Source of the DNA: Nitrospinota bacterium
GTDB lineage: Bacteria; Nitrospinota; Nitrospinia; UBA9942
Assembly (NCBI GenBank): GCA_016234205.1
Contig: JACRGN010000300.1
Location: 1 to 57,607 of the forward strand
Reading direction: 5' to 3'
Length of the DNA: 57,607 bases
The notes beneath the pieces were generated by a model. The model ran no database searches. It was not told the origin of the DNA and saw only the letters and a program-made list of their open reading frames with translations. The position numbers and the translations under genes were made by a program. This document shows positions 5,863-34,785 of the stretch, piece by piece (position 1 is the stretch's first letter; the number at the start of each line of letters is the position of its first letter).

Positions 5863-7605
5863 ATGAAAAAGATTTTAGGATTCTCTTCTGTAATACTACT
5901 ATTTGCAATAATCTCAATCGCAGGTGTATCCGGGTGCGGCTCAGAGTTAAATAGTAATAATACAGATAAAAAAATCAAAGTTACTATTCCATTTGATTTA
6001 TCCGAAAAATCCCTCCAGAAATCAAACCAAACAGGTAATCCAAATCAATTTTATGGTCCAGCCCCTTCCAATGTCCGTTCTATCCGGGTAGATGCAGTTT
6101 ATCGTGATGGCCGAAAGATTTCCAGCACCATAGATGTAGCAGGGGGGACTTATGTAGAAGCCAATATGGAAGTGGATGCAGGCGACTATGTATTTTTTAA
6201 CGCCTTTGCCTATGACGGAACTGGAGGCACAGGAAATCTGCTTTATTTAGGGGCATCCTCACCTCAGACACTCGTAATGGGGATGTCTTATGATATTCTT
6301 ATTCAAATGAGTGCCAATAATAATACACCGCCTGCAGTAAGCTCTGTAAGTCCTTCTAATGGGGCTACGGGTGTGCCGACCAGTAGTATCCTGACTGTTA
6401 TATTCTCAAAGCCAATGGACCCTTCAACCATTAGTTCCAGTAGTTCCTCCGCAATTACTTCAAGTCCTAGTATTAATTGCGGCGGCACAACAACATACAG
6501 TGGCACGACTGCAACATGCACACCATCACCTGCCCTCTCTCCCAACACTACCTATACAATTACTTTTACGACAGGGGTAAAGGACTTAGCAGGTAATGCA
6601 ATGGCAAGCAGTTACACATGGAGTTTTACAACAGGGGCAGACGGAGGGGGTGGAGGCGGAGGTGGAACATCACTGCCGTCAGCATTTAGTTTTAGTTTAC
6701 CATTAAATGGCTCACAAGGGGTTTCACTAACACCAACACTTTCATGGGCAGATTCTGTAGGAGAGACAAGTTACGCAATAGAAATTGCTACAGATCCCGG
6801 ATTTACAGCGATGGCACATAGTGCAACCGTAGGCACTGATATAATAAGCTATACAGTATCTACAGGTCTCTCTCCATCAATTACATACTACTGGAGGGTA
6901 AAGGCTATAAATTCATACGGGGCTACTACTGTATCAAATTCACCATTTACTTTTACAACTACCAGTGGAGGGGGAGGCGGAGGAGGTGGCGACACAACAC
7001 CGCCGACAGTAAGCTCTGTAAGTCCTGTTTCCGGAGCTACGAGTGTGCCTACGAGCAGTATTATTACAATAATATTCTCGGAGGCAATGACTTCTTCGAG
7101 CATTACCACAAGCACAATTATATTGAGTCCTAATCCCGGTTACTCTGTAAACTATAGCAGTGGAACTGCCACGATTACACCCACAACACTTAGTTCAAGC
7201 ACCACATACACTGTTACAATTAAGACAGGAGTAAAGGATTCTGCAGGAAATGCAATGACAAGTGATTATTCATGGAGCTTTACAACAGCAGGAGGTGGTG
7301 ACACCACACCACCTACGGTAAGTTCAGTATCTCCTGCTAGTGGGGCAACAGGTGTAACACCAAGTGGTATCATCACTATCATATTTTCAGAGGCGATGAC
7401 TTCTTCGAGCATTACCACAAGCACAATTACTGTAATTCCTGTCTTTGCTGGCTTTACTGTAAGCTACTCTGGAACAACTGCTACAGTTACACCAACATGG
7501 TCCGGCACCACCACTTACACAGTTACGGTTACGACAGGGGTAAAGGATGCTGCGGGGAATGCAATGACAAGCCCATATTCATGGAGTTTTACAACTTCGC
7601 CATAG
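5863..7605 (+). CDS. Lipoprotein with repeated bacterial Ig-like (SbsA-Ig/Big_5-type) domains and poly-Gly linkers
   Basis: Signal + lipobox (IAGVSGC); four SSVSPxxGATGVPTSS...FSxxM...GVKDxAGNAM...YSWSFTT modules; the last two share near-identical DNA (7076-7121 vs 7383-7428); two GGGGGGGG linkers. Confidence 0.75.
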   Translation: MKKILGFSSVILLFAIISIAGVSGCGSELNSNNTDKKIKVTIPFDLSEKSLQKSNQTGNPNQFYGPAPSNVRSIRVDAVYRDGRKISSTIDVAGGTYVEANMEVDAGDYVFFNAFAYDGTGGTGNLLYLGASSPQTLVMGMSYDILIQMSANNNTPPAVSSVSPSNGATGVPTSSILTVIFSKPMDPSTISSSSSSAITSSPSINCGGTTTYSGTTATCTPSPALSPNTTYTITFTTGVKDLAGNAMASSYTWSFTTGADGGGGGGGGTSLPSAFSFSLPLNGSQGVSLTPTLSWADSVGETSYAIEIATDPGFTAMAHSATVGTDIISYTVSTGLSPSITYYWRVKAINSYGATTVSNSPFTFTTTSGGGGGGGGDTTPPTVSSVSPVSGATSVPTSSIITIIFSEAMTSSSITTSTIILSPNPGYSVNYSSGTATITPTTLSSSTTYTVTIKTGVKDSAGNAMTSDYSWSFTTAGGGDTTPPTVSSVSPASGATGVTPSGIITIIFSEAMTSSSITTSTITVIPVFAGFTVSYSGTTATVTPTWSGTTTYTVTVTTGVKDAAGNAMTSPYSWSFTTSP

Positions 7606-7616
7606 GAAATATAAAT

Positions 7617-9179
7617 ATGAGTTATTTTTTTAAAAGATTAGTAATTCTAAAAAAACCGAGATTCCTCGCTCTGCTCGGAATGACAAAACCAGAGTTCCGA
7701 GGCGTAATCTGCGGATTAATCGGTTTTTTGTTCTTTGTTTTATATAACCCCGTTTACGCCGCAGAAATAGATTACTACACCGAAGGGATGAAGCAACTGC
7801 AGATGGAGAATTATGAGGAGGCTGAGCCTCTGCTTTTAAAGGCTCATAAAAAAGAACCTGCCAACCCAAATATCACTTATTATCTTGGAGTTCTTTATAA
7901 TGCGATGGAAAATTTCAATGATTCCTTAAAATTCTTTAAAGAGACTGTTAAAATTAATCCCAACCTGCTTGAAGTGAGATATTACTTGGCGCAGGTATTG
8001 ATGATGACAGGGGATTATGACGGTGCATTGGAACAGTTTGAAGAGGCTGATAAGGTAAAACATCTCAGTATGATTACCTATTACAAGGGGATGATTTACA
8101 ACCAAAAGGGGGATTACAAAAAGGCAATAGAGCTTATAAAGTCTGCAGGAGAAGAAGATAAAAATCTCCAGCCCATTGTCCAGTTTCAGATTGGAATAAT
8201 TAATTATAATAACGGAAATCTCAAAGAGGCAAAGGCATATTTCAGGAGCCTTATCAGCCTGCATCCTAAATCCGATGAGGCGGAATTTGCCCGTCAATAT
8301 ATTACTGCCATTGAACAGATTGAGAGCATGAAAAACTGGAAAATGACCTTTGGTTATTCTTACCAATACGATGATAATGTTGTCTTAAAACCAACTGATA
8401 CCTCAGCGGCAGAAAGCATCACAAACAAGTCGGACTGGGTATCTAATCTGAATTTCGGTTTTGATTATTCAAAGTCATTTATGAAAAATGGAAACATCGG
8501 ACTTGGTTATTCATTCTCACAGAGCCTCCACGCCCTATTTACTAATTATGATATTCAGAGTCATTCTATTAATATTCTGCCTGCATATAATTTTGGCAAT
8601 TTTAATACAACTCTGATGTATAGCTACGGTTATACATATCTCGATAGGTCGGGATATTTAAGGTCTAACACAGTCAGCCCGATTTTCTCATATATCAGCG
8701 GGTCACAAATGGCACAGATAAGTTTAAAATGGCAGGATAAAGATTATATTAAACCATCCGCAGGAGATGAAAACAGGGCAGGTGCAAATTATGATGCCGG
8801 TGCAGCCTACTTCCTATTTTTAAAAGAGGGAAAAGGTTATATCAATGTTAAATACAATTACGACCGTGATTATACAAATGGGAACAACTGGAAATATAAT
8901 GGCCATAAGGGAGCGGTATCCATACTCCTCCCTGTCAGCAATAGAATCAACTTCAGCTTATCAGGAGATGGATACAGACAGATTTATGATAATACTCATT
9001 CCACCTACAGCGTAAAGAGAGATGATACCATTTACAATGCAAACACACTCATCTCAATAAACCTGCTTAAGAATTTAAAAGGGGATATTACATACGCATA
9101 TACAAGGGCATTTTCCAATACTCCTGTTTATGATTATTCAAAAAATTCGGTAAGCGTTGGATTAAATTATGTTTGGTAG
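7617..9179 (+). CDS. Outer-membrane protein: N-terminal TPR domain + C-terminal beta-barrel (Slam/DUF560-like architecture)
   Basis: ATG 7617 (or 7680) precedes a signal-like hydrophobic stretch ending YAAE; TPR-like helices follow; alternating-hydrophobic strands run from WKMTFGYSYQYDDN to the C-terminal VGLNYVW aromatic end. Confidence 0.6.
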   Translation: MSYFFKRLVILKKPRFLALLGMTKPEFRGVICGLIGFLFFVLYNPVYAAEIDYYTEGMKQLQMENYEEAEPLLLKAHKKEPANPNITYYLGVLYNAMENFNDSLKFFKETVKINPNLLEVRYYLAQVLMMTGDYDGALEQFEEADKVKHLSMITYYKGMIYNQKGDYKKAIELIKSAGEEDKNLQPIVQFQIGIINYNNGNLKEAKAYFRSLISLHPKSDEAEFARQYITAIEQIESMKNWKMTFGYSYQYDDNVVLKPTDTSAAESITNKSDWVSNLNFGFDYSKSFMKNGNIGLGYSFSQSLHALFTNYDIQSHSINILPAYNFGNFNTTLMYSYGYTYLDRSGYLRSNTVSPIFSYISGSQMAQISLKWQDKDYIKPSAGDENRAGANYDAGAAYFLFLKEGKGYINVKYNYDRDYTNGNNWKYNGHKGAVSILLPVSNRINFSLSGDGYRQIYDNTHSTYSVKRDDTIYNANTLISINLLKNLKGDITYAYTRAFSNTPVYDYSKNSVSVGLNYVW

Positions 9180-10580: not shown

Positions 10581-10700
10581 CAAGGAGAACAAAACAAAAA
10601 AATTAAGGAGAAATGGGGAAATTAGGGAAAGGGGGGAAATATTTTAAAATAATTTTTTCTTTCTCCTTTTCTCCCTGTTCTCCCTTTCTCCTTATTGTTT
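10581..10700. repeat. 'ggagaa/ttctcc' inverted word-repeat element
   Basis: ...aattaaggagaaatggggaaattagggaaagggggg...tttctccttttctccctgttctccctttctccttat. Confidence 0.8.
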
Positions 10701-12879: not shown

Positions 12880-12888
12880 ATTAATACT

Positions 12889-12985
12889 TAGCCACGAATG
12901 ATCACGAATTAACACTAAAAAAAATTTTCCCTTAATAAAGGGGGTTGTTTATTAATTCATAAATATTCGTGTAAATTCGTGGCTA
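12889..12985. repeat. Nested palindrome: 'cacgaat' word arms around a cccttaataaaggggg core
   Basis: tagccacgaatgatcacgaatt ... ttcccttaataaaggggg ... aatattcgtgtaaattcgtggcta. Confidence 0.85.
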
Positions 12986-13001
12986 AATTCAGTCTTTGTG
13001 C

Positions 13002-14293: not shown

Positions 14294-14320
14294 TGGCTCA
14301 CAAAGGAGAATTATAATTTT

Positions 14321-14608
14321 AGCCACAGAGGACACAGAGGGAAAAACTAAATTTTTTTGACACAGATTTACACTGATTATTGATACCTGTAATATTAATC
14401 TCCTATATCTGTGTATTTTTGTCATTCCGCACTTGATGCGGAATCCAGTATTTTGTATAAGTATCTGGATTCCCATTTTCACGGGAATGACGGACATGGG
14501 ACATTTGTTATACAGGAGTCAATAGTTATGATTTTTTCTGTGCCAATCATAATTTATCTGTGTCTTTCAGTGTCTTTGTTTTTTGTCTTTCTCTGTGTTC
14601 TCTGTGGC
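14321..14608. repeat. Composite nested repeat: ctgtg-word arms around a gtcattcc...gggaatgac cruciform core (14421-14491)
   Basis: Outer ccacagaggacacagagg / ctctgtgttctctgtgg; core gtcattccgcacttgatgcggaatccag...ctggattcccattttcacgggaatgac. Confidence 0.85.
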
Positions 14609-15041: not shown

Positions 15042-15044
15042 ATA

Positions 15045-15144
15045 AAAGAAAAAGATTAAGGAGAATGGAGAAAAAGGAGAAAAGGAGAAAAAATCTGACT
15101 TATTATCTCTCCATTTCTCCATCTTCTTCCCCCTTTCTCCTTAT
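15045..15144. repeat. 'ggagaa/ttctcc' inverted word-repeat element
   Basis: aaagattaaggagaatggagaaaaaggagaaaaggagaaaa...tctctccatttctccatcttcttccccctttctcctta. Confidence 0.85.
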
Positions 15145-15152
15145 ATGTTTTT

Positions 15153-15167
15153 TATAATTTCCTTTAT
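15153..15167 (+). promoter_or_regulatory. TATAAT box 9 nt before arginase ATG, no SD (candidate near-leaderless promoter)
   Basis: ttTATAATttcctttatATG directly after the hairpin element. Confidence 0.4.
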
Positions 15168-16082
15168 ATGAACAAAAAAATAAAAATCATCGGTGTTCCT
15201 ATTGACCTTGGCTTTGGGAGGAGAGGGGTTGATATGGGACCAAGTGCCTTAAGGATCACAGGTGTTGCTGACGGCTTAATGGGGTTAGATTATTCTGTAG
15301 AAGACCTTGGTGATATAAAATCTCCAATCCCCGAGCTTTGTAATTTAGAAGATAAAAATGCCCGATACTTGCCTGAGATAAAGGATGTATGTATAAAATT
15401 AAGTGATACCGTGTATAAGGTATTACAGGAAGGTGCTATCCCCTTATCGATTGGAGGAGACCACAGTTTGGCAATTGGCAGTATTGCAGGTGTAAGCAGA
15501 TTTATAAAAGAAAAAAACAAAAGGATTGGACTTATATGGTTTGATGCACATGGTGATATGAACACGCCTGAATCTACAACCAGCGGGAATATCCACGGTA
15601 TGCCGTTGGCTGTATCCCTCGGATTGGGTGCAAAGGCACTGACCGAAATCGGAGGATTCTCTCCAAAGGTTGATAGTAAGAATGCGGTACTCATAGGTGT
15701 AAGAAACCTTGATGAGAGGGAAAAGAGGCTTATTGCTGATTCAGGAATTAAGGTTTATACGATGAAGGAAATTGATGAAAAGGGAATGTCAAATATAGTT
15801 AAGGAGGCAATAGATTTGGTTACGAGGGATACTGATTACATACACCTCTCATTTGACATGGATGTATGTGACCCATCAATTGCCCAGGGTGTTGGAACAC
15901 CTGTTAAGGGCGGACTGAATTACAGGGAGGCACATCTCGCTATGGAAAAAATCGCAGAATCAGGTATGCTTTTCTCAATGGATATGGTTGAGATAAATCC
16001 TATACTTGACTATAAAAATTCCACCGCAGAGCTTGGTGCAGAGCTTATTCTGTCGGCTTTCGGAAAGAGAATCTTTTACTGA
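15168..16082 (+). CDS. rocF: Arginase (ureohydrolase family)
   Basis: GGDHSLAIGS, WFDAHGDMNTPESTTSGNIHGMPLA, SFDMDVCDP Mn-ligand motifs. Confidence 0.87.
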   Translation: MNKKIKIIGVPIDLGFGRRGVDMGPSALRITGVADGLMGLDYSVEDLGDIKSPIPELCNLEDKNARYLPEIKDVCIKLSDTVYKVLQEGAIPLSIGGDHSLAIGSIAGVSRFIKEKNKRIGLIWFDAHGDMNTPESTTSGNIHGMPLAVSLGLGAKALTEIGGFSPKVDSKNAVLIGVRNLDEREKRLIADSGIKVYTMKEIDEKGMSNIVKEAIDLVTRDTDYIHLSFDMDVCDPSIAQGVGTPVKGGLNYREAHLAMEKIAESGMLFSMDMVEINPILDYKNSTAELGAELILSAFGKRIFY

Positions 16083-17203
16083 TTTGATGCAAGACTCCTC
16101 ATTTCATCTTTTTCAAATATAATCTCTATCCTCCTGTTTTTCTCCTTATTTTTAACTTCTGCATATAGAGGCCTTGATTCTCCATAACCGGCTGCAGTGC
16201 ATCTTTCCGGGTCGATCCCCCTGCTTATAAGATAGTTGACAAAATTATTTGCCCTTGCAAATGAGAGCTCATAATTAGATGAAAATCTTGAATTCTTTAT
16301 CGGCACATCGTCCGTATGCCCTTCTACCCTTATATTATATGGAAACCTGTTTAATAGAACCACAATCTTATCCATAAAGGGATAAGATTCAAGACTTATA
16401 TCCGCCTCACCTGATTTAAAGGTCAAAGGGTCTAAATTGATAATTGTCAGGTCACCACCTTCTAACTTTGTATATATCCTATCCTGTATCCCAAGTTGCG
16501 ATACAAATCCATCTACCTCCATCTTTATCCGATACAGGTCATTATTATTCTTATTAGCCAAAAGCTTTTTTCCCCTCTCGTTTTTCCTGTCAATATTCAT
16601 CTTTTCTACATAATCAGTAGCAGTCTTATTCTGGGGGTCATACCTCATTGCCAGCATGAAATATTTTCTGCTTGCTGCTGTATCACCCAGCTTAAGGCTT
16701 ATCTGCCCCGATGTAATAAACTGATTGGCAAGAAATCCCTTATTTTCTGGAAACCTGTTCAATAGCGGAGTGCTTATATCCATCGCCTTATCTTCCAGCT
16801 CTACTAATTTTTTTAGCAAGGCTTTATCCTCTTTTACCTCATCATAATTTACAGCCCACAGATAAGATGTTGCAAATGAATGGATTACAGCAGCATAATA
16901 GATGTCACCCATAGTACCACGGGCTTCAAGAAAATCCTTAGCCTCCATAAATTTTATATGGGCGTCATAAAATCTCCCCTGCCTGAAAAGTTCAAAACCA
17001 TCATTGTAATATTTTTTATATTGTCCATCCTGTTCAGGATAGTTATTTTTGAGTTTATCTAAATCAGCATTGTCAAATATAACATTCTGTTCATCCCTGT
17101 TAGTGTGAAAATTGCCAAATTTCACATCCTGTGCAAAAAGATACCCTTTATTTAAAAACATACTTGCCAAAAGACACAGCAGAATAAATATTCTTTTTTT
17201 CAT
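16076..17203 (-). CDS. OmpA/MotB-domain protein with TPR-like N-terminal region
   Basis: C-terminal VEGHTDDVP...NYELSFARA...GYGESRP...NRRIEI; ATG 17203 preceded by GGAGG; signal peptide MKKRIFILLCLLASMF. Confidence 0.82.
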   Translation of the reverse strand: MKKRIFILLCLLASMFLNKGYLFAQDVKFGNFHTNRDEQNVIFDNADLDKLKNNYPEQDGQYKKYYNDGFELFRQGRFYDAHIKFMEAKDFLEARGTMGDIYYAAVIHSFATSYLWAVNYDEVKEDKALLKKLVELEDKAMDISTPLLNRFPENKGFLANQFITSGQISLKLGDTAASRKYFMLAMRYDPQNKTATDYVEKMNIDRKNERGKKLLANKNNNDLYRIKMEVDGFVSQLGIQDRIYTKLEGGDLTIINLDPLTFKSGEADISLESYPFMDKIVVLLNRFPYNIRVEGHTDDVPIKNSRFSSNYELSFARANNFVNYLISRGIDPERCTAAGYGESRPLYAEVKNKEKNRRIEIIFEKDEMRSLASNQ

Positions 17204-17388
17204 ATAAAAACCTCCTTTCTTTTTTATCGGATTAAAAAGAATTTTTATTAACAAATTTTGTTAATAACTTGTGGAAAACCTGATGAAGGATGCTATTCTT
17301 GCTGGATTTCTTTAAAGATGCATAATTTTTAACCAGAATTTAATGCCTTATAAATCAACATGATACCATAACTGCTTGATACTGAAAG

Positions 17389-17602
17389 AACAAAACAAAA
17401 AGATTAAGGAGAAATGGGGAAATTAGGGAAAGGGAGAATATTTTAACCACAAAGACACAAAGGTCACAAAGGAAATAAAAAAAGATTAAAAGATTAGAAG
17501 ATTAAATTTTCTAATCTGTAATTCTTTTCTTTGTGTTCTTCGTGTCTGGTGGTGAATTCTTATTCTTTTCTCCATTTCTCTCATTTCTCCCTTTCTCCTT
17601 AT
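17389..17602. repeat. Triple-nested palindromic element (ggagaa arms > cacaaag arms > agatta core)
   Basis: aaagattaaggagaaatgggg...ccacaaagacacaaaggtcacaaagg...aagattaaaagattagaagattaaattttctaatctgtaattctttt...ctttgtgttcttcgtgtctggtgg...ttctccatttctctcatttctccctttctcctta. Confidence 0.85.
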
Positions 17603-17603
17603 G

Positions 17604-17626
17604 GCTTTTATAATTTCCTATACATC
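17604..17626 (+). promoter_or_regulatory. Orphan copy of the ftsB upstream cassette, with ATC in place of ATG
   Basis: gcttttataatttcctatacatC vs 1353-1375 gcttttatattttcctatacatG. Confidence 0.4.
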
Positions 17627-17628
17627 GA

Positions 17629-17655
17629 CCCCTCACATAAAACTTATGTGCGGGG
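17629..17655. terminator. Second copy of the CCCC(G/T)CACATAA hairpin
   Basis: cccctcacataa-aac-ttatgtgcgggg then tttatcttttt; abuts the stop of the ATP-grasp gene. Confidence 0.55.
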
Positions 17656-17656
17656 T

Positions 17657-18565
17657 TTATCTTTTTCCCTTTACAATCTTCTTCACGCCGTCAACAAGCT
17701 CCCTCACAATATCCCTTACAACATCATCAGGCACACCGTCTATCGCCGTTGATTTTAACCTCATATCGCATGTATCATTTACATAATCCACTACAACAAA
17801 TCTGCCTGCCTTTGTAAGGGCAATCTCTGTAGAAAAAAAATTGATCTTGGCAACCTCAACAATCTTTTTTGTAACCCTCTTAAGCTCTTTCAGTTTATAT
17901 CTCCTTTCAGCCCTTGATGTAAGTCTCTGATATACACCTGTATGATTATCCCACCAGCACATAATCATCTTCCCATATATATAAAAAGACCTAAACCATG
18001 CCCTCCTTCCTTTTAAAGGGACAGGGACAATCTCTTCCTGCAAAAGGTATCTATCTTTACTGTGTTTTTCCCTCGCCTTTACTATCTCATAAGGGGTCTT
18101 AACCCCAAGAACCACCCCCCTCCCACCGCCGCCGTCTGCAGGTTTTACAATAAAAGGCGTTCCTATTGAATGGATATTGGACTCATCAAATTGAGGGTCT
18201 TCTTCATAGGATGAGAGGATAATCGTATATGGAACATAAAGCCCGTTTGTCAGGAATTCAAGATGCATTATAGACTTATCATTTGCCCTGACTGAAAGTG
18301 CAGGGTCATTTACAAATGTCACCCCCTTTTTCTTTAACAGCTTTATTAGGGGGATAAATCTGCTGTCAGACTCGGATGCCCTGTCAATAAACACCTTGAA
18401 TATCATCTCACCTCTTGACAATTTGCCGATTGTCTCATCCAAATTATAGGGATATACGAGATAGCTTTGTAATCCCCTTTTATTACACTCGGAATCAAGG
18501 ATGCTTACAAAATCCCTGTCATATTCCCAATCCCATCCAATAGCTAAATCTACCTCTAATGGCAT
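17657..18565 (-). CDS. ATP-grasp domain protein (RimK/GshB-like fold), substrate unknown
   Basis: IVKPADGGGGRGVVLG glycine-rich loop, YLLQEEI, FFSTEIAL...VVVDYVNDTCD. Confidence 0.7.
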   Translation of the reverse strand: MPLEVDLAIGWDWEYDRDFVSILDSECNKRGLQSYLVYPYNLDETIGKLSRGEMIFKVFIDRASESDSRFIPLIKLLKKKGVTFVNDPALSVRANDKSIMHLEFLTNGLYVPYTIILSSYEEDPQFDESNIHSIGTPFIVKPADGGGGRGVVLGVKTPYEIVKAREKHSKDRYLLQEEIVPVPLKGRRAWFRSFYIYGKMIMCWWDNHTGVYQRLTSRAERRYKLKELKRVTKKIVEVAKINFFSTEIALTKAGRFVVVDYVNDTCDMRLKSTAIDGVPDDVVRDIVRELVDGVKKIVKGKR

Positions 18566-18576
18566 AGATGTATTCT

Positions 18577-18657
18577 ACAACAAGCAACTGACAACTTACA
18601 ACCTACAACTTATAACCGTAGTTGTTTAGTCATCAGTTACAAGTTGTCAGTTGTAAG
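18577..18657. repeat. 'caact/acaac' inverted word repeat
   Basis: acaacaagcaactgacaacttacaacctacaactt...agttgtttagtcatcagttacaagttgtcagttgtaagg. Confidence 0.75.
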
Positions 18658-20854
18658 GATTGGTGGTATATTTAAATCTGTGAAAACACCCTATAACCAA
18701 TTAGAAATTTGCGAAAATTGCTCAAAAGCCCTATCTAAGATATTCGAGATAAGTCAAAAGATCTCTTCATCACTGAATCAGGACACTATAGTAAGGGAGG
18801 TATGTAAGGCAATAATAGAAGATTTTGGGTTCAGGATGGTATGGATAGGTATTATTACCCCTGATTCCTTTGAGGTAAAGCCTGTCTATCAGGAGGGATT
18901 TGAGTATGGGTATCTATCCTCCATAAAGGTGAGATATGATGAATCCCCCCTTGGAATGGGTCCAACAGGAACTGCTATAAGAACCAGAACCCCCTCTGTT
19001 ATAAATGATTACGAATCTGACCCGAGATTTGCCCCGTGGCTGTCAGAGGCTAAAAAGAGGGGATATAAATCGGGATGTGCCTTTCCTATGATAGCCTTGG
19101 AGAAGGTGCTGGGTTCAATAAATGTCTACAATGACAGAAAGCACGCCTTTGATAGCAATACAATAATGCTCCTTCAATTACTTGCCAATAATGCTGCAAT
19201 AGCACTGCACAATGCCCGGCTCTACGGAGAACTGAAAGGGATAGAGGAGAGGTATCGTTATCTTGTAGAAAACTCCCCTGATGTCATCGGGATAATACTT
19301 GACAGCAAGATAGCCTTTTTCAATGAGGCAGGATTGAGAATACTGGGATATACAAGAGATGAGATAATCGGTAAAGAGGTATCTGAAATCATTCACCCTG
19401 AAGATAGAGAAGTGGTGCTTAAGGATATAGAAATAGTCTTATCCGGAGGCTCTGTGCACCCAAGAGAATACAGGCTATTAAATAAAAAAGGAGATATTAT
19501 TTATGTGGAAGCAACCCGCAAAAAAATAGAATACGAAGGCAAACCGGCAGTGCAGTGCATTGTCAGGGATATATCGGAAAGAAAGAAGAGAGAGAACGAG
19601 ACAAAGGAATTGGAGGATAGGTATCGAAGTCTTATAGAAGACTCTCCTGATGCCATTGGAGTAATATACAATGGCAGGATAGTCTTTTGTAATAACAGGA
19701 CGATAGAATTACTCGGATATACCTATGACGAGATTAATGGTAAGGGGGCGATTGAGTTTATTTCTCCTGAAGACAGGGAAAGGGCATCAAAGAACCTTAT
19801 GTCAGTATTATCCGGAGCAACCCTACCAGCACCAAGAGAATATAAATTGGTAAAGAAGAATGGGGAATGTATTGATATAGAGTTAACAAGCAGCAGAATA
19901 GTATATAGAGGTAAGCCGGCAATACAGGGCGTAATGAGAGATGTATCTGAAAGAAAAAAAAGAGATGCCAGAATAAAAGAGATGGAGGAAAGGTATCGCA
20001 ATCTTGCAGAAAATTCTCCTGACGGTATTGGAGTAACATGCAATGGCAGGGCAGTTTTTATCAACAAAAAATGGGCAGAGGCACTTGGATATACCATAGA
20101 TGAGATTATTGGCAGAAATCCAATAGAACATATCCATCCTGAAGATAGAGAAAGGGCAATCAATAATATAAAGACAATATTATCCGGAGAGTCTTTACCA
20201 TCGCCAAGAGAATATAGGGCAATAAGAAAGAATGGAGAAATTGTTGAGATGGAGGCAGCCAGCAGCAGAATAATATATGAGGGTAAGACGGCAATACAGA
20301 GCATTTTCAGGGATATATCTGAAAGGAAAAAATATGAGAAAAAATTAAAAGAGATGAAGGAGAGGTATCGCAGTCTTGTAGAAAACTCTCCTGATGCTAT
20401 CGGAGCAGTGTGTGATGGCAGGATAGTTTTTATAAATGACAAGGGATTGGAGATGTTTGGATACACAAGGGATGAGATTATTGGCATGAATGTAGCTAAA
20501 ACTGTTTCCCCTGAAGATGGAGAGAGGGTATTAAATGATATAAAAATAGTATTATCAGATGAGTATATACCACCAAGGGAATACAAACTGCTAAAGAAAA
20601 ACGGGGAGACCTTTGATGTAGAGATAACCCGCAGCAAAATAGAGTATGAAGGTAAACCTGCAATACAGAGCACTATCAGGGATATATCTGAAAGGAAGAA
20701 GAGGGATAATGAGATGAGGGAATATATCCGGGAGTTAGAGATATTAAATAAGGTAGCAATAGAGAGGGAACTTCGTATGATAGAGCTGAAAAAAGAGGTT
20801 AATAAACTGCTCACCGAGATTGGAAGAGAGAAGATGTACAAGATTACAGAATGA
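18644..20854 (+). CDS. GAF + four tandem PAS domains + short coiled coil; no recognisable output domain (start codon uncertain)
   Basis: GAF-like N-terminus; four ~123-aa units beginning E(E/D)RYRxLxExSPD at nt 19250, 19619, 19991 and 20363, each ending RDISERKK. Confidence 0.8.
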   Translation: MSVVRIGGIFKSVKTPYNQLEICENCSKALSKIFEISQKISSSLNQDTIVREVCKAIIEDFGFRMVWIGIITPDSFEVKPVYQEGFEYGYLSSIKVRYDESPLGMGPTGTAIRTRTPSVINDYESDPRFAPWLSEAKKRGYKSGCAFPMIALEKVLGSINVYNDRKHAFDSNTIMLLQLLANNAAIALHNARLYGELKGIEERYRYLVENSPDVIGIILDSKIAFFNEAGLRILGYTRDEIIGKEVSEIIHPEDREVVLKDIEIVLSGGSVHPREYRLLNKKGDIIYVEATRKKIEYEGKPAVQCIVRDISERKKRENETKELEDRYRSLIEDSPDAIGVIYNGRIVFCNNRTIELLGYTYDEINGKGAIEFISPEDRERASKNLMSVLSGATLPAPREYKLVKKNGECIDIELTSSRIVYRGKPAIQGVMRDVSERKKRDARIKEMEERYRNLAENSPDGIGVTCNGRAVFINKKWAEALGYTIDEIIGRNPIEHIHPEDRERAINNIKTILSGESLPSPREYRAIRKNGEIVEMEAASSRIIYEGKTAIQSIFRDISERKKYEKKLKEMKERYRSLVENSPDAIGAVCDGRIVFINDKGLEMFGYTRDEIIGMNVAKTVSPEDGERVLNDIKIVLSDEYIPPREYKLLKKNGETFDVEITRSKIEYEGKPAIQSTIRDISERKKRDNEMREYIRELEILNKVAIERELRMIELKKEVNKLLTEIGREKMYKITE

Positions 20855-20859
20855 TAGTT

Positions 20860-21163
20860 GGACACAGATGGACACAGAAAATCAGGATACTTAAATACAG
20901 GAACACGAATTACACGAATAGACGAATAGCACGAATAAAAACTAATTTAGGAAATTCAATATTAGAGATTGCTTCGCCTTCGGCTCGCAATGACATGCAA
21001 GTCAAAGTGTCATTGCGAGGGGCGAAGCCCCGAAGCAATCTAATTTATTTTTTGCTTTATTAATTTGTGTAATTCGTCCATTCGTGTCATTCGTGTTCAA
21101 GTCTTTTGTTTTTTTTGGTTGCGGCTTTGCAACGCTGTGTGTATCTGTGAAAATCTGTGTCCC
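20860..21163. repeat. Triple-nested palindromic element (ctgtg arms > cacgaat arms > cattgcgag core)
   Basis: Outer 20860-20885 / 21136-21163; middle 20901-20937 / 21066-21098; core 20965-21042 gattgcttcgccttcggctcgcaatgac...gtcattgcgaggggcgaagccccgaagcaatc. Confidence 0.9.
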
Positions 21164-21177
21164 ATTTAATTTAAAGA

Positions 21178-22755
21178 ATGATAAGAATTATAGAAGATAT
21201 ACTAAATATCGGCTACCCGATTGACCCGTCTCCGATTATAAAAGATGAGGGATTTCGTAACAGCCTCGCAACTGTATATTTCAGACGCATAAAGGTTATT
21301 GCCTCATGTGCAATTATCCTGTATCTCCTCTCAAACTCAATTGATTATCCCCTCCCCTCTGAAAAATTTCTTTATGTCTTGTTTTTTAAAATAATTGCCA
21401 TAACATTTTATCTCTTAACAATATTCCTTTTGCCGCCAGATAAAGGAGTTGTCTTCTATAATATCGTTGGCCTCTCACAGCTATTCACTGCCTCTATAAT
21501 TAACGCAATCATAATCAGGCTCACAGGCGGCTATGATTCATACTGGGCTATTACCATAGGGATGGCAATAATGGTAGCATCTCTTTATCCCTGGCCCATC
21601 AGATTTATGCTCCCCGCCATGTCCGCCGCATACCTATGTTATCTTCTCCCGTCACTCTTTTTAGATGACATAATAAACTTCCATCCATTCATTACAAACA
21701 ATTTCTATCTCATAGGTATTCTGTTTGTATCACTCTTTATCTCATTCATACAGTATCGCTATCTGATGGTTGAATTTTATCTATACTCAAGACTGGAAAA
21801 GTCCAAAGATACCACTGACAACATTTTATCAGAAAGCATTAAACTTCAGGAAAGACTCAAGGAATCAAAGGAGGAACTCCTGCTCAAAAAGACCGAGGCA
21901 GAAGAAAAGGCAAGGGAGATGGAAAAGACTGTATCGGAGCTTTCAAATATAAAGCTGGCTTTATTAAATATAATGGAAGACCTGTATAATTCAAAAAAGA
22001 GGGTGGAAGACACAAATATTGAGTTAAATAAATACAACCGACTCAAATCGGAATTCCTTGCCAATATCAGCCATGAACTTAGAACACCTCTTTCATCTGT
22101 TATAGGCTTTAGCAAATTACTTCTGGATGACGATAATCTTGATCCCGACTCAAGAAAAAAGTATCTATCCATAATATTTCAAAGCGGCAACAGCCTGATG
22201 AATCTTATTAGCGACCTTATGGATATCTCAAAGATTGAGGCAGGGGAAATGGAATTAGAAATTAACCCTGCAAACATAAATCTTATAATATCAGAGACTG
22301 TTTTTTCTCTGCAGCCTATGATAACAGAATATAACCATACTGTTGAGGAAGAGCTTGCCCCCTCCTTAAAAGAGATTGAGGCTGACCATAGAAGAGTTCA
22401 GCAGATTCTTGCCAATCTCATGGTAAATGCTATAAAATATACTAAATACGGCGGAAAAATTACAGTTGCAAGTATAGATTCGGGTGATGAGGTATGGATA
22501 ACGGTTAAAGATACAGGAATCGGGATAGCACCTGAAGACAGGGAGATTATATTTGACAGGTTCAGACAGATTGATGGTTCCCTTACAAGAAAGGCAGGGG
22601 GGATAGGAATAGGATTGGATTTAACGAGGTCTCTTGTAAGGATGCACGGCGGCAGGATATGGGTCAACAGCGAGGTGGGAAAAGGGAGTGCATTTACAGT
22701 TACACTGCCGAAGAAACATAGTTGCAAGATGCAAGATGCAAGTTACAAGACTTGA
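21178..22755 (+). CDS. Membrane sensor histidine kinase (multi-TM N-terminus, coiled coil, HisKA, HATPase_c)
   Basis: H-box [13 protein letters not shown]; N, G1 and G2 boxes ([23 protein letters not shown]). Confidence 0.88.
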
Positions 22756-23148
22756 AACCTCTATGGAAGAGTTAAAGGGCTTTAAAAAATTAATTGTATG
22801 GCAGAAGGCTTACGATTTCGTATTGATGGTTTACAAATATACACAGGAATTTCCTTCTTCCGAGCTATACGGTTTAACATCACAGATAAGAAGGGCTACA
22901 GTATCTATTTCGGCAAATATTGCCGAAGGCAGTGAAAGGCAGCACAAAAAAGAATTTTTACAATTTTTATCTATAGCAAGAGGTTCTCTTGCAGAGGTAG
23001 AAACATATTTAATGTTAGTTAAAGATTTAGGTTATATCAGTAAAGATAGATTTGTTGAGTTAGAGAAACAAAGACAGGAGATTGGAAGATTATTGAGAGG
23101 ATTATATAAGTCTTTATCTTGAAACTTGCAACTTGCATCTTGCAACTT
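22721..23148. repeat. 21-bp 'tgcaag' stem enclosing the four-helix-bundle gene
   Basis: GTTGCAAGATGCAAGATGCAA (22721-22741) pairs with TTGCAACTTGCATCTTGCAAC (23126-23146), one mismatch; cttgaaac at both 22751-22758 and 23118-23125. Confidence 0.8.
22763..23122 (+). CDS. Four-helix-bundle protein (23S rRNA intervening-sequence protein family)
   Basis: About 119 aa; FKKLIVWQKAYDF...QIRRATVSISANIAEG...ARGSLAEVETYL pattern typical of TIGR02436/PF05635. Confidence 0.85.
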   Translation: MEELKGFKKLIVWQKAYDFVLMVYKYTQEFPSSELYGLTSQIRRATVSISANIAEGSERQHKKEFLQFLSIARGSLAEVETYLMLVKDLGYISKDRFVELEKQRQEIGRLLRGLYKSLS

Positions 23149-23164
23149 AGGTTAGGAGGTTTTC

Positions 23165-23821
23165 ATGGCTAACATACTTGTAGTAGATGATGATAAGAAA
23201 CTGACTCTCCTTGTGAGAGGTTTTCTTGAAAAAGAAAAATATCAGGTAGCAGAGGCATATTCGGGGAGAATGGCTTTAGATGCCATAAAAGAAACAAAAC
23301 CCGACTTAATAATCCTTGATATAATGATGCCTGAAATGGACGGCATAGAGGCATGCAAGAGAATTAAGGCTGACAAAGATACAAAGATGATACCTATAAT
23401 CATGCTTACCTCAATGAGTACTGTAAAGGACAAGGTTATAGGGCTGAATGCGGGGGCTAATGACTATATAACAAAACCTTTTAATCCTGAAGAATTGATA
23501 GCAAGAGTTAAGGCACAGCTTAGAATCAAATTTCTGGAGGCTGAATTATTAAGAAAAGAGGAGGTTGAGGCAGTGGTAAAGATGGGCATTACAACCGCAC
23601 ATGAAATAAATAACCCCTTAACCGTTATAATCGGGAATCTTGAACTTCTACTAATGAAGAAAGAAAACCTTAGTGAGGAAGATTCAACAAATTTAAACTC
23701 CATCTTAGAAAGTGCTATAAGAATTAAGGAGATAGTTTCAAAGATGATAAATATTACCAGAATTGTTGAAACCGAATACGCACAGGGAAAAAAAATGATT
23801 GATCTGTGGAAGTCAGGCTGA
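23165..23821 (+). CDS. Response-regulator receiver fused to a HisKA-like DHp helix pair, no ATPase domain
   Basis: REC (DDD...DLIILDIMMP...TKPF) then H-box-like TTAHEINNPLTVIIGNLELL; AGGAGG RBS. Confidence 0.8.
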   Translation: MANILVVDDDKKLTLLVRGFLEKEKYQVAEAYSGRMALDAIKETKPDLIILDIMMPEMDGIEACKRIKADKDTKMIPIIMLTSMSTVKDKVIGLNAGANDYITKPFNPEELIARVKAQLRIKFLEAELLRKEEVEAVVKMGITTAHEINNPLTVIIGNLELLLMKKENLSEEDSTNLNSILESAIRIKEIVSKMINITRIVETEYAQGKKMIDLWKSG

Positions 23822-23870: not shown

Positions 23871-24524
23871 ATGGTTGAGATTATCCTTGTCATAATAGCA
23901 AGTTATCTTATCGGCTCTATATCACCAAGCATAATCCTCGGAAAAATATTAAAAGGGATAGATATTCGTGAACATGGCAGTGGTAATGCAGGCTCAACGA
24001 ATGCCTTTAGAGTTCTTGGCAAATGGGCAGGTATAACAGTCCTCCTATTGGATATTTTTAAGGGCTATTTTGCAGTTAAGTTTATAAGCCCTCTATCAGG
24101 AGAAAATCCAGTCATAGTAAGCTTGCCGAATCTATCCCCTACCCTTGTCGCCATCCTATCAGGTTTTGCAGCCATTATAGGGCATGTATGGACACTCTTT
24201 CATTCATTTAAGGGTGGAAAGGGGGTAAATACTGCAACAGGGGTTCTTTTAGCATTGATTCCAATACCAACTATTTTGGCTGCAGGCATCTTTTTAATTG
24301 TGCTACTCACAACAAGATATGTATCCCTTGGCTCAATGCTTGCCTCTCTATCACTCCCAATAATATTGATAATAATGTCATTGCGAGCCAAAGGCGAAGC
24401 AATCCCTTCGGAGCTGATTATATTTGCGGCTATCATCCCCATCTTTATTATCTATACACACAGAGCAAATATAAAGAGACTGATGAGAGGAGAAGAGAAT
24501 AAAATAAAATTAGGCAGGGGTTAA
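23871..24524 (+). CDS. plsY: Glycerol-3-phosphate acyltransferase PlsY
   Basis: YLIGSISPS, GSGNAGSTN, HVWTLFHSFKGGKGV, HRANIKRL motifs. Confidence 0.92.
   Translation: MVEIILVIIASYLIGSISPSIILGKILKGIDIREHGSGNAGSTNAFRVLGKWAGITVLLLDIFKGYFAVKFISPLSGENPVIVSLPNLSPTLVAILSGFAAIIGHVWTLFHSFKGGKGVNTATGVLLALIPIPTILAAGIFLIVLLTTRYVSLGSMLASLSLPIILIIMSLRAKGEAIPSELIIFAAIIPIFIIYTHRANIKRLMRGEENKIKLGRG
24377..24406. repeat. Half 'cattgcgag' repeat unit in-frame inside plsY
   Basis: gtcattgcgagccaaaggcgaagcaatccc, translated SLRAKGEAIP; same family as the 20965-21042 core. Confidence 0.7.
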
Positions 24525-26234: not shown

Positions 26235-26242
26235 ATAGAATA

Positions 26243-26412
26243 AAATAAAAAGATTAAGGAGAAAGGGGGAAAAGGAAAATTAGGAGAATAAAATATATAT
26301 ATAAGGAAGCCATGAAGCCATGAATTTATTAAAATTTTCATGGATTCCTGGATTCCTAATAAAATTAGTTTTTCTTCTCCATTTCTCCATCTTCTTCTCC
26401 CTTTCTCCTTAT
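26243..26412. repeat. Nested element: ggagaa arms around a gaagccatga/tcatggattc hairpin
   Basis: aaagattaaggagaaaggggg...aaggaagccatgaagccatgaa...ttcatggattcctggattcct...ttctccatttctccatcttcttctccctttctcctta. Confidence 0.85.
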
Positions 26413-26418
26413 AGATTT

Positions 26419-27465: not shown

Positions 27466-27480
27466 TTTATAGAAATTATA
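27466..27480 (-). promoter_or_regulatory. TATAAT box 9 nt before ispG ATG, no SD
   Basis: Minus strand reads ggttttataatttctataaaATG immediately after the hairpin element. Confidence 0.4.
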
Positions 27481-27483
27481 AAA

Positions 27484-27600
27484 CCATTAAGGAGAAAGGG
27501 GGAAGTGGGAGAGATGGGGGAAAATAAATTCTTTTTAAAAATATTTCCTTTCTCCCTTTCCTCAATTTCCCATTTCTCCTTAATCTTTTTCTTGTTTTAT
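27484..27600. repeat. 'ggagaa/ttctcc' inverted word-repeat element
   Basis: cattaaggagaaagggggaagtgggagagatggggg...tttctccctttcctcaatttcccatttctccttaatcttttt. Confidence 0.85.
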
Positions 27601-27685
27601 TTTTTACTATAAAACAGTTTTAAACTCCATGTCAAAACAAATATAATATTGACTGTGTGTGCTTAAATATGTTACTTATTTAACC

Positions 27686-34304: not shown

Positions 34305-34390
34305 TGCCGAGGGCCGGAATCGAACCGGCACGGCAGTTTCCCGCCGAGGGATTTTAAGTCCCTTGCGTCTACCTATTCCGCCACCCCGGC
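34305..34390 (-). tRNA. tRNA-Leu (anticodon UAA), long variable arm, no encoded CCA
   Basis: Minus strand GCCGGGGTGGCGGAATAGGTAGACGCAAGGGACTTAAAATCCCTCGGCGGGAAACTGCCGTGCCGGTTCGATTCCGGCCCTCGGCA folds as a cloverleaf; anticodon loop CTTAAAA; GTTCGATTC T-loop. Confidence 0.93.
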
Positions 34391-34563
34391 AAATAAAGAT
34401 TTTCTTAAAATACAATAAGTTATAATTTTATAAAGTGTGTCATATCGTGTCATATAGAGTCGAAACTGATTACATTTGCAATCAATTATCACAAAAAAGT
34501 AATCAAAAAGCAATCATTTTTCAGTTAAGCAATAAACCCAAATTATGCACGAACGATTTAGAT

Positions 34564-34692
34564 AAGACCTTATGTCCCTGTAGCAACTGTCAAATTTTTA
34601 CTTTTCTATGGATGGTAAAAAGTGAAAATTTCCACAGTTCAGACAGACATGGACGGCTGTCTGAACGACAAGCGGAAGGGACATAAGGTCTT
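34564..34692. ncRNA. Unassigned 129-nt structured element: 16-bp closing stem and two hairpins whose loops share ATGGA(T/C)GG
   Basis: aagaccttatgtccct / agggacataaggtctt perfect; hairpin 34592-34631 (14 bp, one G-U); hairpin 34638-34665 (9 bp perfect). Confidence 0.35.
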
Positions 34693-34785
34693 TCACTCAT
34701 TTTTTGGGATAAACTATAGATGGGATAATGATGTCATATACTATCTTGGAGTAAAATTTAATGATTCAGATGAAAGCAACCTTAC

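Follow-up and report, generated by a model that had tools for sequence, protein, structure and literature searches.

Small palindromic repeats account for much of the non-coding DNA in many bacteria, and both their spread and their effect on the host are mostly obscure. The genome of an uncultured groundwater bacterium of the phylum Nitrospinota contains an intergenic element, at positions 20860-21163 of a 57,607-nucleotide stretch of DNA (hereafter the window), in which three inverted repeats lie one inside another. The original prediction, made from the letters of the window, described at least seven families of short words in inverted pairs, repeatedly nested. This arrangement raises the questions of what such palindromes are, how one comes to lie within another, and whether they serve the cell or spread through its genome. 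Here, we describe a computational analysis of these elements in the window, in the whole genome and in related genomes.

Results

A three-layer hairpin assembled from dispersed families

The focal element lies between two ORFs of the plus strand (18644-20854 and 21178-22755). Its outer arms, composed of GGACACAGA words, pair 20860-20878 with 21144-21162 (19 nt, 84% complementary); its middle arms, composed of CACGAAT words at a period of 8-9, pair 20893-20939 with 21060-21106 (47 nt, 81% complementary). The core (20964-21043) resembles a REPIN: two REP units (TGTCATTGCGAGGGGCGAAGCCCCGAAGCAATCT), each bearing a TGTC tag, form an inverted doublet in which the tags point inward. It has perfect arms of 11-12 nt (20966-20976/21031-21041 and 20984-20995/21008-21019). 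Three concentric layers, as predicted, are thus borne out by the outer, middle and core inverted repeats. The element folds as a single 300-nt hairpin of -127.2 kcal/mol, compared with -69.5 +/- 5 kcal/mol for dinucleotide shuffles (z = -11.5); none of 100 shuffles folded as well, and its structure is far above that of composition-matched sequence.

Each layer belongs to a separate dispersed, multi-copy family, and a census found the layers recurring genome-wide beyond the focal element. The CACGAAT layer is an element of roughly 150 nt with about 29 arm copies in the genome. The core has at least 11 full copies at 82-92% identity, and in all 11 aligned full copies the TGTC tag precedes the stem. 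Its REP unit TGTCATTGCGAG occurs 87 times, and the related units TGTCATTCTGAG and TGTCATTCCGAG occur 50 and 21 times, respectively. A second copy in the window (47205-47291, 88.6% identical) lies inside an ORF call, 47021-48388. The core alone, to the exclusion of the word hairpins, is a short, imperfect, extragenic, high-copy palindrome of the REP type, and its inverted doublet folds into one hairpin, as in a REPIN.

The layers also come apart in other sequences. The CACGAAT host element is empty of the core in one locus of a relative (G001:C27) and carries another insert in G000:C313, while an orthologous metagenome contig (L072, 92-94% identical) keeps both the outer arms and the middle layer and has a different core at the same site. 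Among 59 comparisons of a host with and without its insert, the junction fell in the terminal loop of the empty host in 58%, against 19% for random positions, in a test whose detection is biased to the middle of host elements; the inserts were themselves multi-copy in 32 of the 59. The empty host, the alternative core and the tip preference together support the proposal that hairpin elements insert into one another's loops. The tip loop of a resident hairpin is the preferred landing place of new copies, and it is this preference that produces concentric layers. Whole multi-layer composites also recur as single spreading units, so the layers are not all separate events. Nor can an order of layer ages be read from pairing quality, since pairing shows no gradient across the outer, middle and inner thirds (0.58, 0.51 and 0.57; p = 0.41). 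No target-site duplication could be defined at 39581-39806, at 5043-5236 or at the core insertion.

Word arrays and their distribution among intergenic gaps

All seven word families are enriched as inverted pairs within 350 nt, far above block-shuffled sequence. GGAGAA was paired with its reverse complement at this distance 21 times (1.5 expected), CCACAG 7 times (0.6 expected), and CACGAAT in 6 of 6 cases (0.1 expected). The view that the arms are built from repeated short words was likewise sustained by TRF, which found 2939 tandem arrays of period 6 or more in the 2.79-Mb genome and 559 in a shuffled control (1281 and 68, respectively, at a score of at least 40), with periods of 7, 8, 9 and 10 the commonest.

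The hairpins are several families of gene-less, dispersed palindromic DNA repeats of about 60-300 nt. At least three kinds of structure are present: GC-rich, TGTC-tagged REP doublets; AT-rich word hairpins, in which a 7-10-nt word repeated 2-5 times in tandem makes up one arm and the mirrored words make up the other; and word hairpins with a gene for a four-helix-bundle protein (PF05635) in the loop. Two statements about their distribution had gone too far. Rather than occupying nearly every intergenic gap, hairpins with z <= -6 are found in 15 of the 32 gaps of the window, and rather than lying alike between tandem, convergent and divergent genes, they avoid divergent gaps genome-wide. Strong hairpins occur in 30% of tandem, 26% of convergent and 7% of divergent gaps of 50-450 nt, figures that derive from crude ORF calls and an energy-per-base threshold by which coding controls score 5.7%. 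Copies are therefore kept out of divergent, promoter-only gaps.

A superfamily with conserved asymmetric ends

One superfamily of hairpins has conserved asymmetric ends, designated LT (AAGAACAAAAACCTGATTA) and RT (AAATTTTTATAATTTCCTATACATGAA). LT has 160 matches, against 14 for a control motif, and RT has 147, against 34. The nearest RT lies on the same strand as LT in 45 of 46 cases, 59-222 nt downstream. The ends carry A- and T-runs a few bases from the outer stem, an A-run before and a T-run after it on both strands. Across the superfamily arms 82.5% of cells are paired, compared with 66.4% in shuffled and 36-43% in slid alignments; 46 cells are compensatory where 20.2 are expected, a number reached by 0 of 500 shuffles. 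The arms thus co-vary, and pairing is kept while the words change.

The superfamily is abundant only in the bacterial family of this organism (f1): LT counts were 9-90 per genome in all eight f1 genomes and at most 8 in 112 other genomes. Of the exact matches, 32 of 33 were in Nitrospinota MAGs, most of them labelled groundwater or aquifer, and viral contigs gave no exact LT or RT match. We found no LT-gene-RT parent of the kind that defines classical MITEs, an insertion sequence with the same ends, as the ORFs between LT and RT motifs spaced 600-4000 nt apart are all ordinary and unrelated. The LT-to-RT direction showed no bias relative to genes (16:16).

Exchange of hairpins at orthologous sites

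Each of the other six elements named in the original prediction folds as one long hairpin (-31.9 to -108.2 kcal/mol), and comparison of orthologous gaps, which it had recommended, showed that relatives carry different word hairpins or none. A complete LT-hairpin-RT element at 5014-5252 (plus strand; CACTGAG/CACAGAG outer and CACAGAT inner layers) provides with its left end the final codons and stop of the upstream ORF. It is missing from G001 and G003, in which the two genes overlap, and five relatives contain dozens of copies of its type, about 200 nt long and 75-92% identical. On the minus strand, the LT-hairpin-RT-like element at 39581-39806 (LT at 39793-39807; layers of CACAGAG, GGAGAA and AACCAAT words) lies within an operon, separating the stop of one gene from the start of the following one, where the gene gap is just 3 nt in G002 and 2 nt in G004. 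An LT-CACAGAT hairpin-RT-like element at 44677-44824 (minus strand) has copies at 93-95% identity in G001-G003, and the site itself carries a different hairpin in G002.

Other sites likewise differ between relatives. The GGAGAA-word hairpin at 15042-15167 (plus strand), which ends in an RT motif (15149-15162), corresponds to five different hairpins among relatives, and the three-layer element at 17389-17618 (plus strand; GGAGAA, CACAAAG and AGATTA words; RT motif at 17605-17618) corresponds to a different LT-CACAGAT hairpin in L072. In place of the CACGAAT-word hairpin around a CCCTTAATAAAGGGGG core at 12888-12986 there is an ACAGGAT hairpin in G002 and a CGCAGATT hairpin in G001 and G003. The CACAGAG layer around a GTCATTCCG-type REP core at 14321-14608 is missing in G001, and other sequence occupies the site in G004 (a GCAAAG-word hairpin) and G007; its core is 93-97% identical to copies in G004. 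Different hairpins are found in G001, G002, G007 and G004 at the site of 26243-26412 (GGAGAA around GAAGCCATG; z = -10.7), and a GTGTCAG-word hairpin in G002 at that of 52581-52695 (CGCAGATT around CATTGTTTC). The window also holds GGAGAA-word hairpins at 10588-10695 (z = -7.1; family matches elsewhere) and, in a divergent gap, at 27466-27613 (z = -6.6), a CCCCTCACC/GGTGAGGGG palindrome at 38092-38171 (z = -8.5; 33 genome matches) and a short, strong palindrome at 41077-41124 (z = -9.7).

Presence or absence between relatives was seen at 39581-39806, 5043-5236, 14294-14582 and 22756-23164; at some of the "empty" sites the adjoining sequence also differs, so that replacement or deletion, and not insertion, may account for some of the differences. 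Different hairpins at orthologous sites indicate replacement or cassette exchange, and element copies from different genera share 93-97% identity where the genes of those genera share 72-80%. The resident hairpin of a given gap thus gives way to another member of the family within a short evolutionary time, in comparisons among genomes that are all metagenome bins, in which repeats can cause misassembly. As a practical matter, palindromes of this kind break metagenome assemblies and give rise to spurious ORFs, and they are usable as strain markers.

Word hairpins with a gene in the loop

At 22721-23146 (plus strand), arms of TGCAAG heptamers (22721-22758 and 23118-23146) enclose a four-helix-bundle gene (ORF about 22763-23122; PF05635 match of 143.5 bits). 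The octamer CTTGAAAC stands at both inner junctions, forming an 8-nt direct repeat that bounds the cargo. The cassette lies between two protein-coding ORFs and not in a 23S rRNA gene; it is present in L072 and missing in G002, which has a 51-nt gap. PF05635 genes lay between inverted word arrays in 13 of the 14 cases examined (5 of 5 above the cut-off in this genome and 8 of 9 across nine other genomes), the exception, in G011, having direct arrays. The flanking words include TGCAAGA, GGGTCAA, TTACGAT, ATTGAAG and AGTCTAAG arrays. About 35 loci with gene-less TGCAAG hairpins match the cargo-less junction of the window cassette. In two cases PF05635 proteins with the same flanking word were reciprocal nearest neighbours across families (74% and 70% identity). 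The genes are multi-copy only in families f1, f3, f4 and f5. Proteins of this four-helix-bundle family are related to the DGR accessory protein Avd and form pentameric rings.

Search for a mobilising enzyme

No mobilising enzyme was found for the hairpins. The original prediction that the window lacks a transposase was not contradicted, the contig having no match in the whole-genome searches for Y1, IS110, TnpB and reverse-transcriptase families. The whole assembly has no IS110 or TnpB gene, and encodes five reverse transcriptases.

Y1 proteins of the genome match the NCBIfam model of REP-associated tyrosine transposases at 86.2 bits (cut-off 80) and 74.8 bits. The hairpins could accordingly be miniature elements of the classical REPIN/RAYT or IS200/IS605 type, whose single-stranded hairpin form the Y1 (HUH) transposases of the genome would mobilise. 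The inverted doublet of tagged REP units in the focal core fits such an origin, as do the absence of target duplication and the asymmetric ends, both found in IS200/IS605 relatives. The repeats, however, do not flank the Y1 genes: no REP unit borders any of the four Y1 loci, and within 4 kb there are only partial REP words, 2.5 and 3.3 kb away. RAYT-like Y1 genes are present in 2 of the 7 other f1 genomes and in many genomes that have no elements; five element-rich relatives, with genomes just 73-90% complete, have none. REPs with CGTC/TGTC tags have moreover been reported to lack a dedicated RAYT (PMC3733652). A RAYT association as it stands is rejected, since the Y1 genes are unflanked by repeats and do not track the elements, and we regard mobilisation by Y1 transposases as unlikely.

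Discussion

Taken as a whole, the hairpins probably behave as non-autonomous mobile or recombining DNA rather than as conserved regulatory sites. Movement may proceed through a single-stranded or cruciform hairpin intermediate, with an enzyme acting in trans. At occupied sites, replacement could take place by copy-choice or gene conversion, with the conserved LT and RT ends as homology, and the tandem words within an element would be homogenised by slippage together with intrastrand templated repair.

It would be an improbable alternative, though one with several observations on its side, that the hairpins are RNA elements serving the host (bidirectional intrinsic terminators, stabilisers of mRNA 3' ends or RNase III sites), selected at gene ends with dispersal secondary. 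Depletion from divergent gaps is expected of sequences acting downstream of genes, the A- and T-runs flank the outer stem on both strands, compensatory change preserves pairing, orthologous gaps still hold some hairpin though its identity changes, and the similarly built stems of known intervening sequences are RNase III substrates (PMC4990558). Yet some copies separate closely coupled genes of an operon, which in relatives stand 2-3 nt from each other, others lie inside ORFs, and in relatives many gaps are free of hairpins. At -60 to -127 kcal/mol, the stems far exceed the needs of termination, and a consensus scan of 20860-21163 for intrinsic terminators (a short GC-rich stem, then a T-run) found no site. 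At the Rfam 15 gathering score, only one tRNA was detected in the whole window. Folding energy and G-U counts are alike on both strands (p = 0.12; 120 vs 136 G-U), and neither this nor the orientation of the elements points to a strand-specific RNA role. The near identity of copies in different genera accords with spread rather than with selection at each locus, and purifying selection on selfish inserts predicts depletion from divergent gaps equally well. A promoter in the RT end (TATAAT) was also considered and is unsupported, with no promoter-like site in 20700-21300 and no suitable -35 box by eye.

That nothing moves, and that slippage makes the arrays in place while fold-back or template-switch synthesis mirrors them, with similarity due to shared mutational bias, is very doubtful: it would suit the 1026 distinct word units among 1821 arrays, the single word variant identical across both arms of an element, the differences in word number among copies and the many words one substitution apart (CACAGAG, CACGGAG, CACTGAG, CGCAGAG, CACAGAT, CGCAGAT), but entire composites of 100-240 nt, with their non-repetitive loops and asymmetric ends, are found again at many loci and in further genera, 85-97% identical, so that loops and ends, beyond words, are largely common to different loci, hosts are found both with and without multi-copy inserts, and local flanks are not the source of the outer layers.

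As mobile or recombining DNA, the hairpins resemble REP, REPIN and BIME elements in being short, extragenic, high-copy palindromes (Bertels and Rainey 2011, PMC3116915; Di Nocera et al. 2013, PMC3733652). The core doublet, with its terminal TGTC tag followed by an A-T stem start, is close to the REP CGTC superfamily, in which TGTC is a named variant tag and REP dimers lie within longer palindromes in Anabaena variabilis, Thermomicrobium roseum and Halothiobacillus neapolitanus (PMC3733652). REPINs are reported to insert into or beside other REPINs (PMC3116915), and in-frame copies within genes are known for REP-type elements such as Rickettsia RPE. The present elements differ in that most of the material is AT-rich word hairpins and not GC-rich REPs, that there are up to three or four layers, that the tags face inward (a TT dimer, rare in the CGTC families), that the REP stem has interruptions and exceeds 8-9 bp, and that no association with a RAYT gene was found.

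Intergenic tandem heptamers are reportedly also the substance of cyanobacterial STRR, and Elhai and colleagues are said to have described, in 2008, very small repeats, able to form hairpins, that insert into others with no obvious target duplication and no known transposase. STRR belong to another phylum and have other sequences; here, word arrays are systematically mirrored into long hairpins and one superfamily has conserved asymmetric ends. The short palindromic repeats of Volvox carteri organelle DNA (PMC2670323) differ in being organellar and in having neither tandem-word arms nor conserved ends. TAACTGA repeats of Beggiatoaceae, Cyanobacteria and Bacteroidetes are likewise abundant intergenic heptamer arrays of patchy phylogenetic distribution; they are formed, however, by repeats of a single word, direct in 169 sets and inverted in one, and mostly lie immediately before start codons (PMC4679880), whereas many mirrored words are found here.

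The hairpins with word arms are constructed like a small gene cassette that was first encountered within ribosomal RNA genes. In the 23S rRNA intervening sequences (IVS) of Coxiella and Leptospira, a terminal-inverted-repeat stem encloses a PF05635 (S23p) ORF, and the Coxiella stem region contains tandem GACAGAT heptamers, in strain-variable number (PMC4990558), of the same word type as CACAGAT here. The Coxiella IVS has been regarded as selfish and possibly formerly mobile (PMC4990558). The cassettes described here, unlike IVS, lie between protein genes, outside helices 25 and 45 of 23S rRNA; every copy uses a word of its own, and hundreds of similarly built gene-less hairpins accompany them. 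It is conceivable, if somewhat unlikely, that PF05635 proteins are trans-acting partners of the word hairpins, each paralogue recognising its own tandem word (perhaps with one subunit per word) and promoting, alone or with one of the five reverse transcriptases, the copying of hairpins into tips; on this view the hundreds of word hairpins without a gene would descend from the cassettes as miniature forms.

This genome is an unusually clear case of small palindromic repeats, with several families stacked one within another, exchange at fixed sites between close relatives, gene ends rewritten and pairing kept despite word change. The build common to cassettes and hairpins offers a testable candidate origin for heptamer-armed hairpins and suggests a possible role for the widespread S23p/Avd-like protein family, which is without an assigned function. 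If PF05635 proteins do act on the hairpins, the intervening sequences of 23S rRNA and the heptamer repeats of bacteria (STRR-like arrays) would be one undescribed class of mobile element.

A nested element built from separate repeat families

The three-layer element at 20860-21163 lies between ORFs 18644-20854 and 21178-22755 of a metagenome-assembled genome, G000 (2.79 Mb in 387 contigs, 39% G+C, 83% complete). The three concentric inverted repeats of the original prediction were all found: outer arms of GGACACAGA words (20860-20878 and 21144-21162, 84% complementary) enclose 47-nt middle arms of CACGAAT words (20893-20939 and 21060-21106, 81% complementary), which surround a core with perfect arms of 11-12 nt. 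The whole folds as a single hairpin of -127.2 kcal/mol (z = -11.5; dinucleotide-shuffled sequences give -69.5 +/- 5), and six further predicted elements each fold as a single long hairpin. In the core, two TGTC-ATTGCGAGGGGCGAAGCCCCGAAGCAAT-CT units form an inverted doublet with inward-facing tags; each unit is a REP-like palindrome that carries a TGTC tag and whose stem starts with A-T. The layers are separate dispersed families. BLAST searches of the genome return the 80-110-nt core in full at least 11 times (82-92% identity), the CACGAAT arms about 29 times and, for each of the other predicted elements, tens to more than 100 partial matches; TGTCATTGCGAG occurs 87 times. A full copy of the REPIN-like core (47205-47291) lies within ORF 47021-48388 and a half copy (24375-24404) within an ORF call, both leaving the frame unbroken.

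Each of the seven predicted word families is enriched, and its words have a reverse-complement partner within 350 nt at a rate far above that of block-shuffled sequence (GGAGAA, 21 paired versus 1.5 expected; CACGAAT, six of six versus 0.1). Genome-wide, TRF detects 2939 tandem arrays of period 6 or more versus 559 in a shuffled control (1281 versus 68 at scores of at least 40), periods of 7, 8, 9 and 10 being the most frequent, and array partners within 450 nt are mirrored in 279 cases and direct in 24, an approximately twelve-fold difference. The claim that palindromes occupy nearly every intergenic gap was too strong, as z is -6 or below in 15 of the 32 window gaps, about half. Their occurrence regardless of gene orientation holds genome-wide for tandem and convergent gaps (30% and 26% filled by strong hairpins) and fails for divergent gaps (7%, near the coding-control level of 5.7%), these classes being approximate because gene coordinates come from mechanical ORF lists with crude gene calls.

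A word array, TTTCAGCCTTCAGCTTTCGGCTTTCAGC, also occurs in coding sequence at 5330-5360 (ORF 5237-5794) and is kept in the related genomes G001 and G003, where the gene upstream terminates in AGCAAT-word repeats. A non-word composite at 34533-34715, adjoining a tRNA gene (34305-34390, minus strand), consists of a 75-nt double-hairpin unit (CAAATTTTTACTTTTCTATGGATGGTAAAAAGTGAAAATTTCCACAGTTCAGACAGACATGGACGGCTGTCTGAACG) inside a longer palindrome (AAGACCTTATGTCCC...GGGACATAAGGTCTT); the related genome G004 has copies at 94-96% identity, and several tips in another family carry the unit as an insert. Another repeat, AATTTCATTGAGCCTATAAGGAATTGAAAC, with about 15 copies across G000 and none in the window, looks like a CRISPR repeat.

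Different word families share conserved ends

The left end motif, LT (AAGAACAAAAACCTGATTA), has 160 matches with up to two mismatches versus 14 for a reversed control, and the core 14-mer of the right end motif, RT (AAATTTTTATAATTTCCTATACATGAA), has 147 versus 34. RT follows within 600 nt downstream of 46 of the 160 LT copies; in 45 of these the nearest RT is on LT's own strand, at a distance of 59-222 nt that spans one to four hairpin layers. Both ends recur across the word families CACAGAG, CACTGAG, CGCAGAG, CACAGAT, CGCAGATT, ACAGGAT and CAGGAAT; words vary between elements, and both arms of each element match. An alignment of 16 single-layer members shows compensatory changes at 11 of 15 stem pairs, with arm pairing in 82.5% of cells (66.4% shuffled, 36-43% with partners slid) and 46 compensatory cells versus 20.2 expected, a value reached by none of 500 shuffles; this covariation is supportive rather than proof, because sequence relatedness inflates such figures.

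Every one of the eight genomes in the element-rich family that includes G000 carries 9-90 copies of LT, against a background of 0-8 in a further 112 genomes of the class; LT is absent from viral contigs. Exact matches to one repeat motif of the window come almost solely from Nitrospinota MAGs, mostly labelled groundwater or aquifer (UBA9963, NC_groundwater bins, RIFCSPLOWO2_12_39_16). Only one exact LT-plus-word match lies beyond Nitrospinota; its MAG (CAMOFE010000015.1) bears the label uncultured Alphaproteobacteria, and the match could reflect chance, mis-binning or transfer.

A host RNA function for the hairpins, as terminators, stabilisers or processing sites, would be compatible with their being selfish repeats, and is unlikely as the explanation in its own right. 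The orientation of LT-RT elements relative to flanking genes is random (16:16) and folding is equally good on both strands, which argues against a strand-specific RNA role.

Search for a mover

Classical REPIN/RAYT mobilisation appears doubtful. Of the four Y1 (IS200-like) matches in the genome, two proteins are full-length and have a C-terminal domain of DnaA type, and both match the NCBIfam model 'REP-associated tyrosine transposase' (86.2 bits, cut-off 80, and 74.8 bits). No repeats flank the genome's Y1 genes, which were not found in the element-rich genomes G001-G004 and G007 (metagenome bins, like every genome compared) and are present in many element-free genomes. The G000 search found no IS110 or TnpB genes, and no parent element of the form LT...gene...RT was found. 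Five reverse-transcriptase (RVT_1) genes lie in the 2.8-Mb genome, on contigs C175, C133, C21, C275 and C103, none of which carries a gene of the four-helix-bundle family PF05635.

Nested layers form by insertion into hairpin tips

The middle-layer element of 20860-21163 has a coreless copy in G001 (contig C27) and a copy with a different insert in G000 (contig C313); the window core is placed exactly in the middle-layer loop, between AAAAACTAATTTA and TTTTT. A metagenome contig (Ga0209521_10008200) aligns collinearly with window 15150-23478 (92-94% identity); in the gap orthologous to that of the element, it shares the outer and middle layers and has a different core, two small GC hairpins. 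G002, of the same genus, has the window core, is missing 83 nt on the right (21071-21153) and has a different left neighbour; on our reading of the sequence, TGTGT microhomology flanks the edges of this deletion.

Fifty-nine comparisons across the genome matched a repeat copy carrying an extra 30-400 nt with one lacking it. In 58%, the junction fell in the empty copy's terminal loop, where 19% of random positions in those hosts fall; the size of this preference is uncertain because the test favours junctions near the host middle. A mean of 31 base pairs spanned the junction versus 16 in controls, and 32 of the 59 inserts were themselves multi-copy. Several host families carry many different inserts at one tip (for example, copies in C309, C122, C153 and C53). 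The empty host copy, alternative cores and tip junctions thus uphold the predicted insertion of one element into the loop of another. Composites of CACAGAG and GGAGAA words, 177-183 nt long, recur as complete units (C339, C15, C142, C113), as does the multi-layer element at 5014-5252, of which five relatives contain dozens of copies about 200 nt long. The identity of words within each element suggests homogenisation by slippage and intrastrand templated repair; templated growth purely in place, set beside these empty hosts and recurring composites, is quite improbable.

Hairpins differ at orthologous sites

Orthologous gaps were located via flanking coding sequence in five related genomes. The three-layer element at 39581-39806 is absent in G002 and G004, where stop-to-start spacing is 3 and 2 nt; the element at 5043-5236, which provides the final codons and stop of the upstream ORF, is absent in G001 and G003, where the two genes overlap; and the element at 14294-14582 is absent in G001. 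No target duplication was definable at the presence/absence sites compared, some of which differ between relatives beyond the element itself. Occupied gaps also differ: 12880-12995 contains CACGAAT words in the window, ACAGGAT in G002 and CGCAGATT in G001 and G003; 15042-15167 holds five distinct hairpins among relatives; and hairpins vary likewise at 26235-26418, 44543-44821, 52581-52695 and 17389-17602. Copies of single elements are 93-97% identical across genera whose genes are 72-80% identical.

Window 1-7638 is 100% identical across 7.6 kb to contig C109 of G002, another species' representative, and the remaining window is 89-97% identical to G002; the stretch may have been transferred recently, may be a contig shared by the population, or may result from cross-binning. 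The gap at 54379-54874 is 496 nt in the window versus 35 in G002, and that at 48925-49174 is 250 versus 1707.

Most inspected PF05635 genes reside in word hairpins

A PF05635 gene of the window (ORF about 22763-23122, 143.5 bits) sits in the loop of a hairpin with TGCAAG heptamer arms, with the octamer CTTGAAAC at both inner junctions; this cassette is present in the collinear metagenome contig and not in G002. Inverted word arrays flank all five above-cut-off PF05635 genes of G000, each with its own word, and eight of the nine examined elsewhere (nine genomes, four families); the exception (genome G011, contig C120) has long direct arrays of GGTTCTAG / GGGTCTAG words on both sides. About 35 gene-less TGCAAG loci match the junction expected after cargo removal; as the arms consist of simple repeats, this supports descent weakly. 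In two cases PF05635 proteins from different families that share a flanking word are each other's nearest neighbours (74% and 70% identity), and the genes are multi-copy in families f1 (that of G000), f3, f4 and f5 and rare in the rest of the class. The build is that of the Coxiella 23S rRNA intervening sequence, which has a 28-bp terminal stem, a loop S23p ORF and variable-number tandem GACAGAT heptamers, and which RNase III excises (PMC4990558). PF05635 also resembles Avd, an accessory protein required for DGR retrohoming (PMC10053308).

Discussion

Cyanobacteria carry small dispersed repeats. Nested palindromic repeats are already known in kind, as REP dimers within longer palindromes in several bacteria (PMC3733652), REPINs beside or within other REPINs (PMC3116915) and organelle palindromes inserting into each other (PMC2670323). 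We found no literature account of such repeats in Nitrospinota, nor a description of systematic tandem-word arms, asymmetric ends common to different word families, hairpin exchange at orthologous sites or a link to PF05635 cassettes outside rRNA genes.

The hairpins are best read, with reasonable confidence, as several families of palindromic repeats that are selfish and non-autonomous. The absence of both a parent element and any definable target duplication suggests movement through a hairpin intermediate acted on in trans. On this reading the families insert into hairpin tips, their composites spread as units, hairpins are excluded from promoter-only gaps by selection, and hairpins are exchanged at already occupied sites, where the conserved ends could act as homology in copy-choice replacement.
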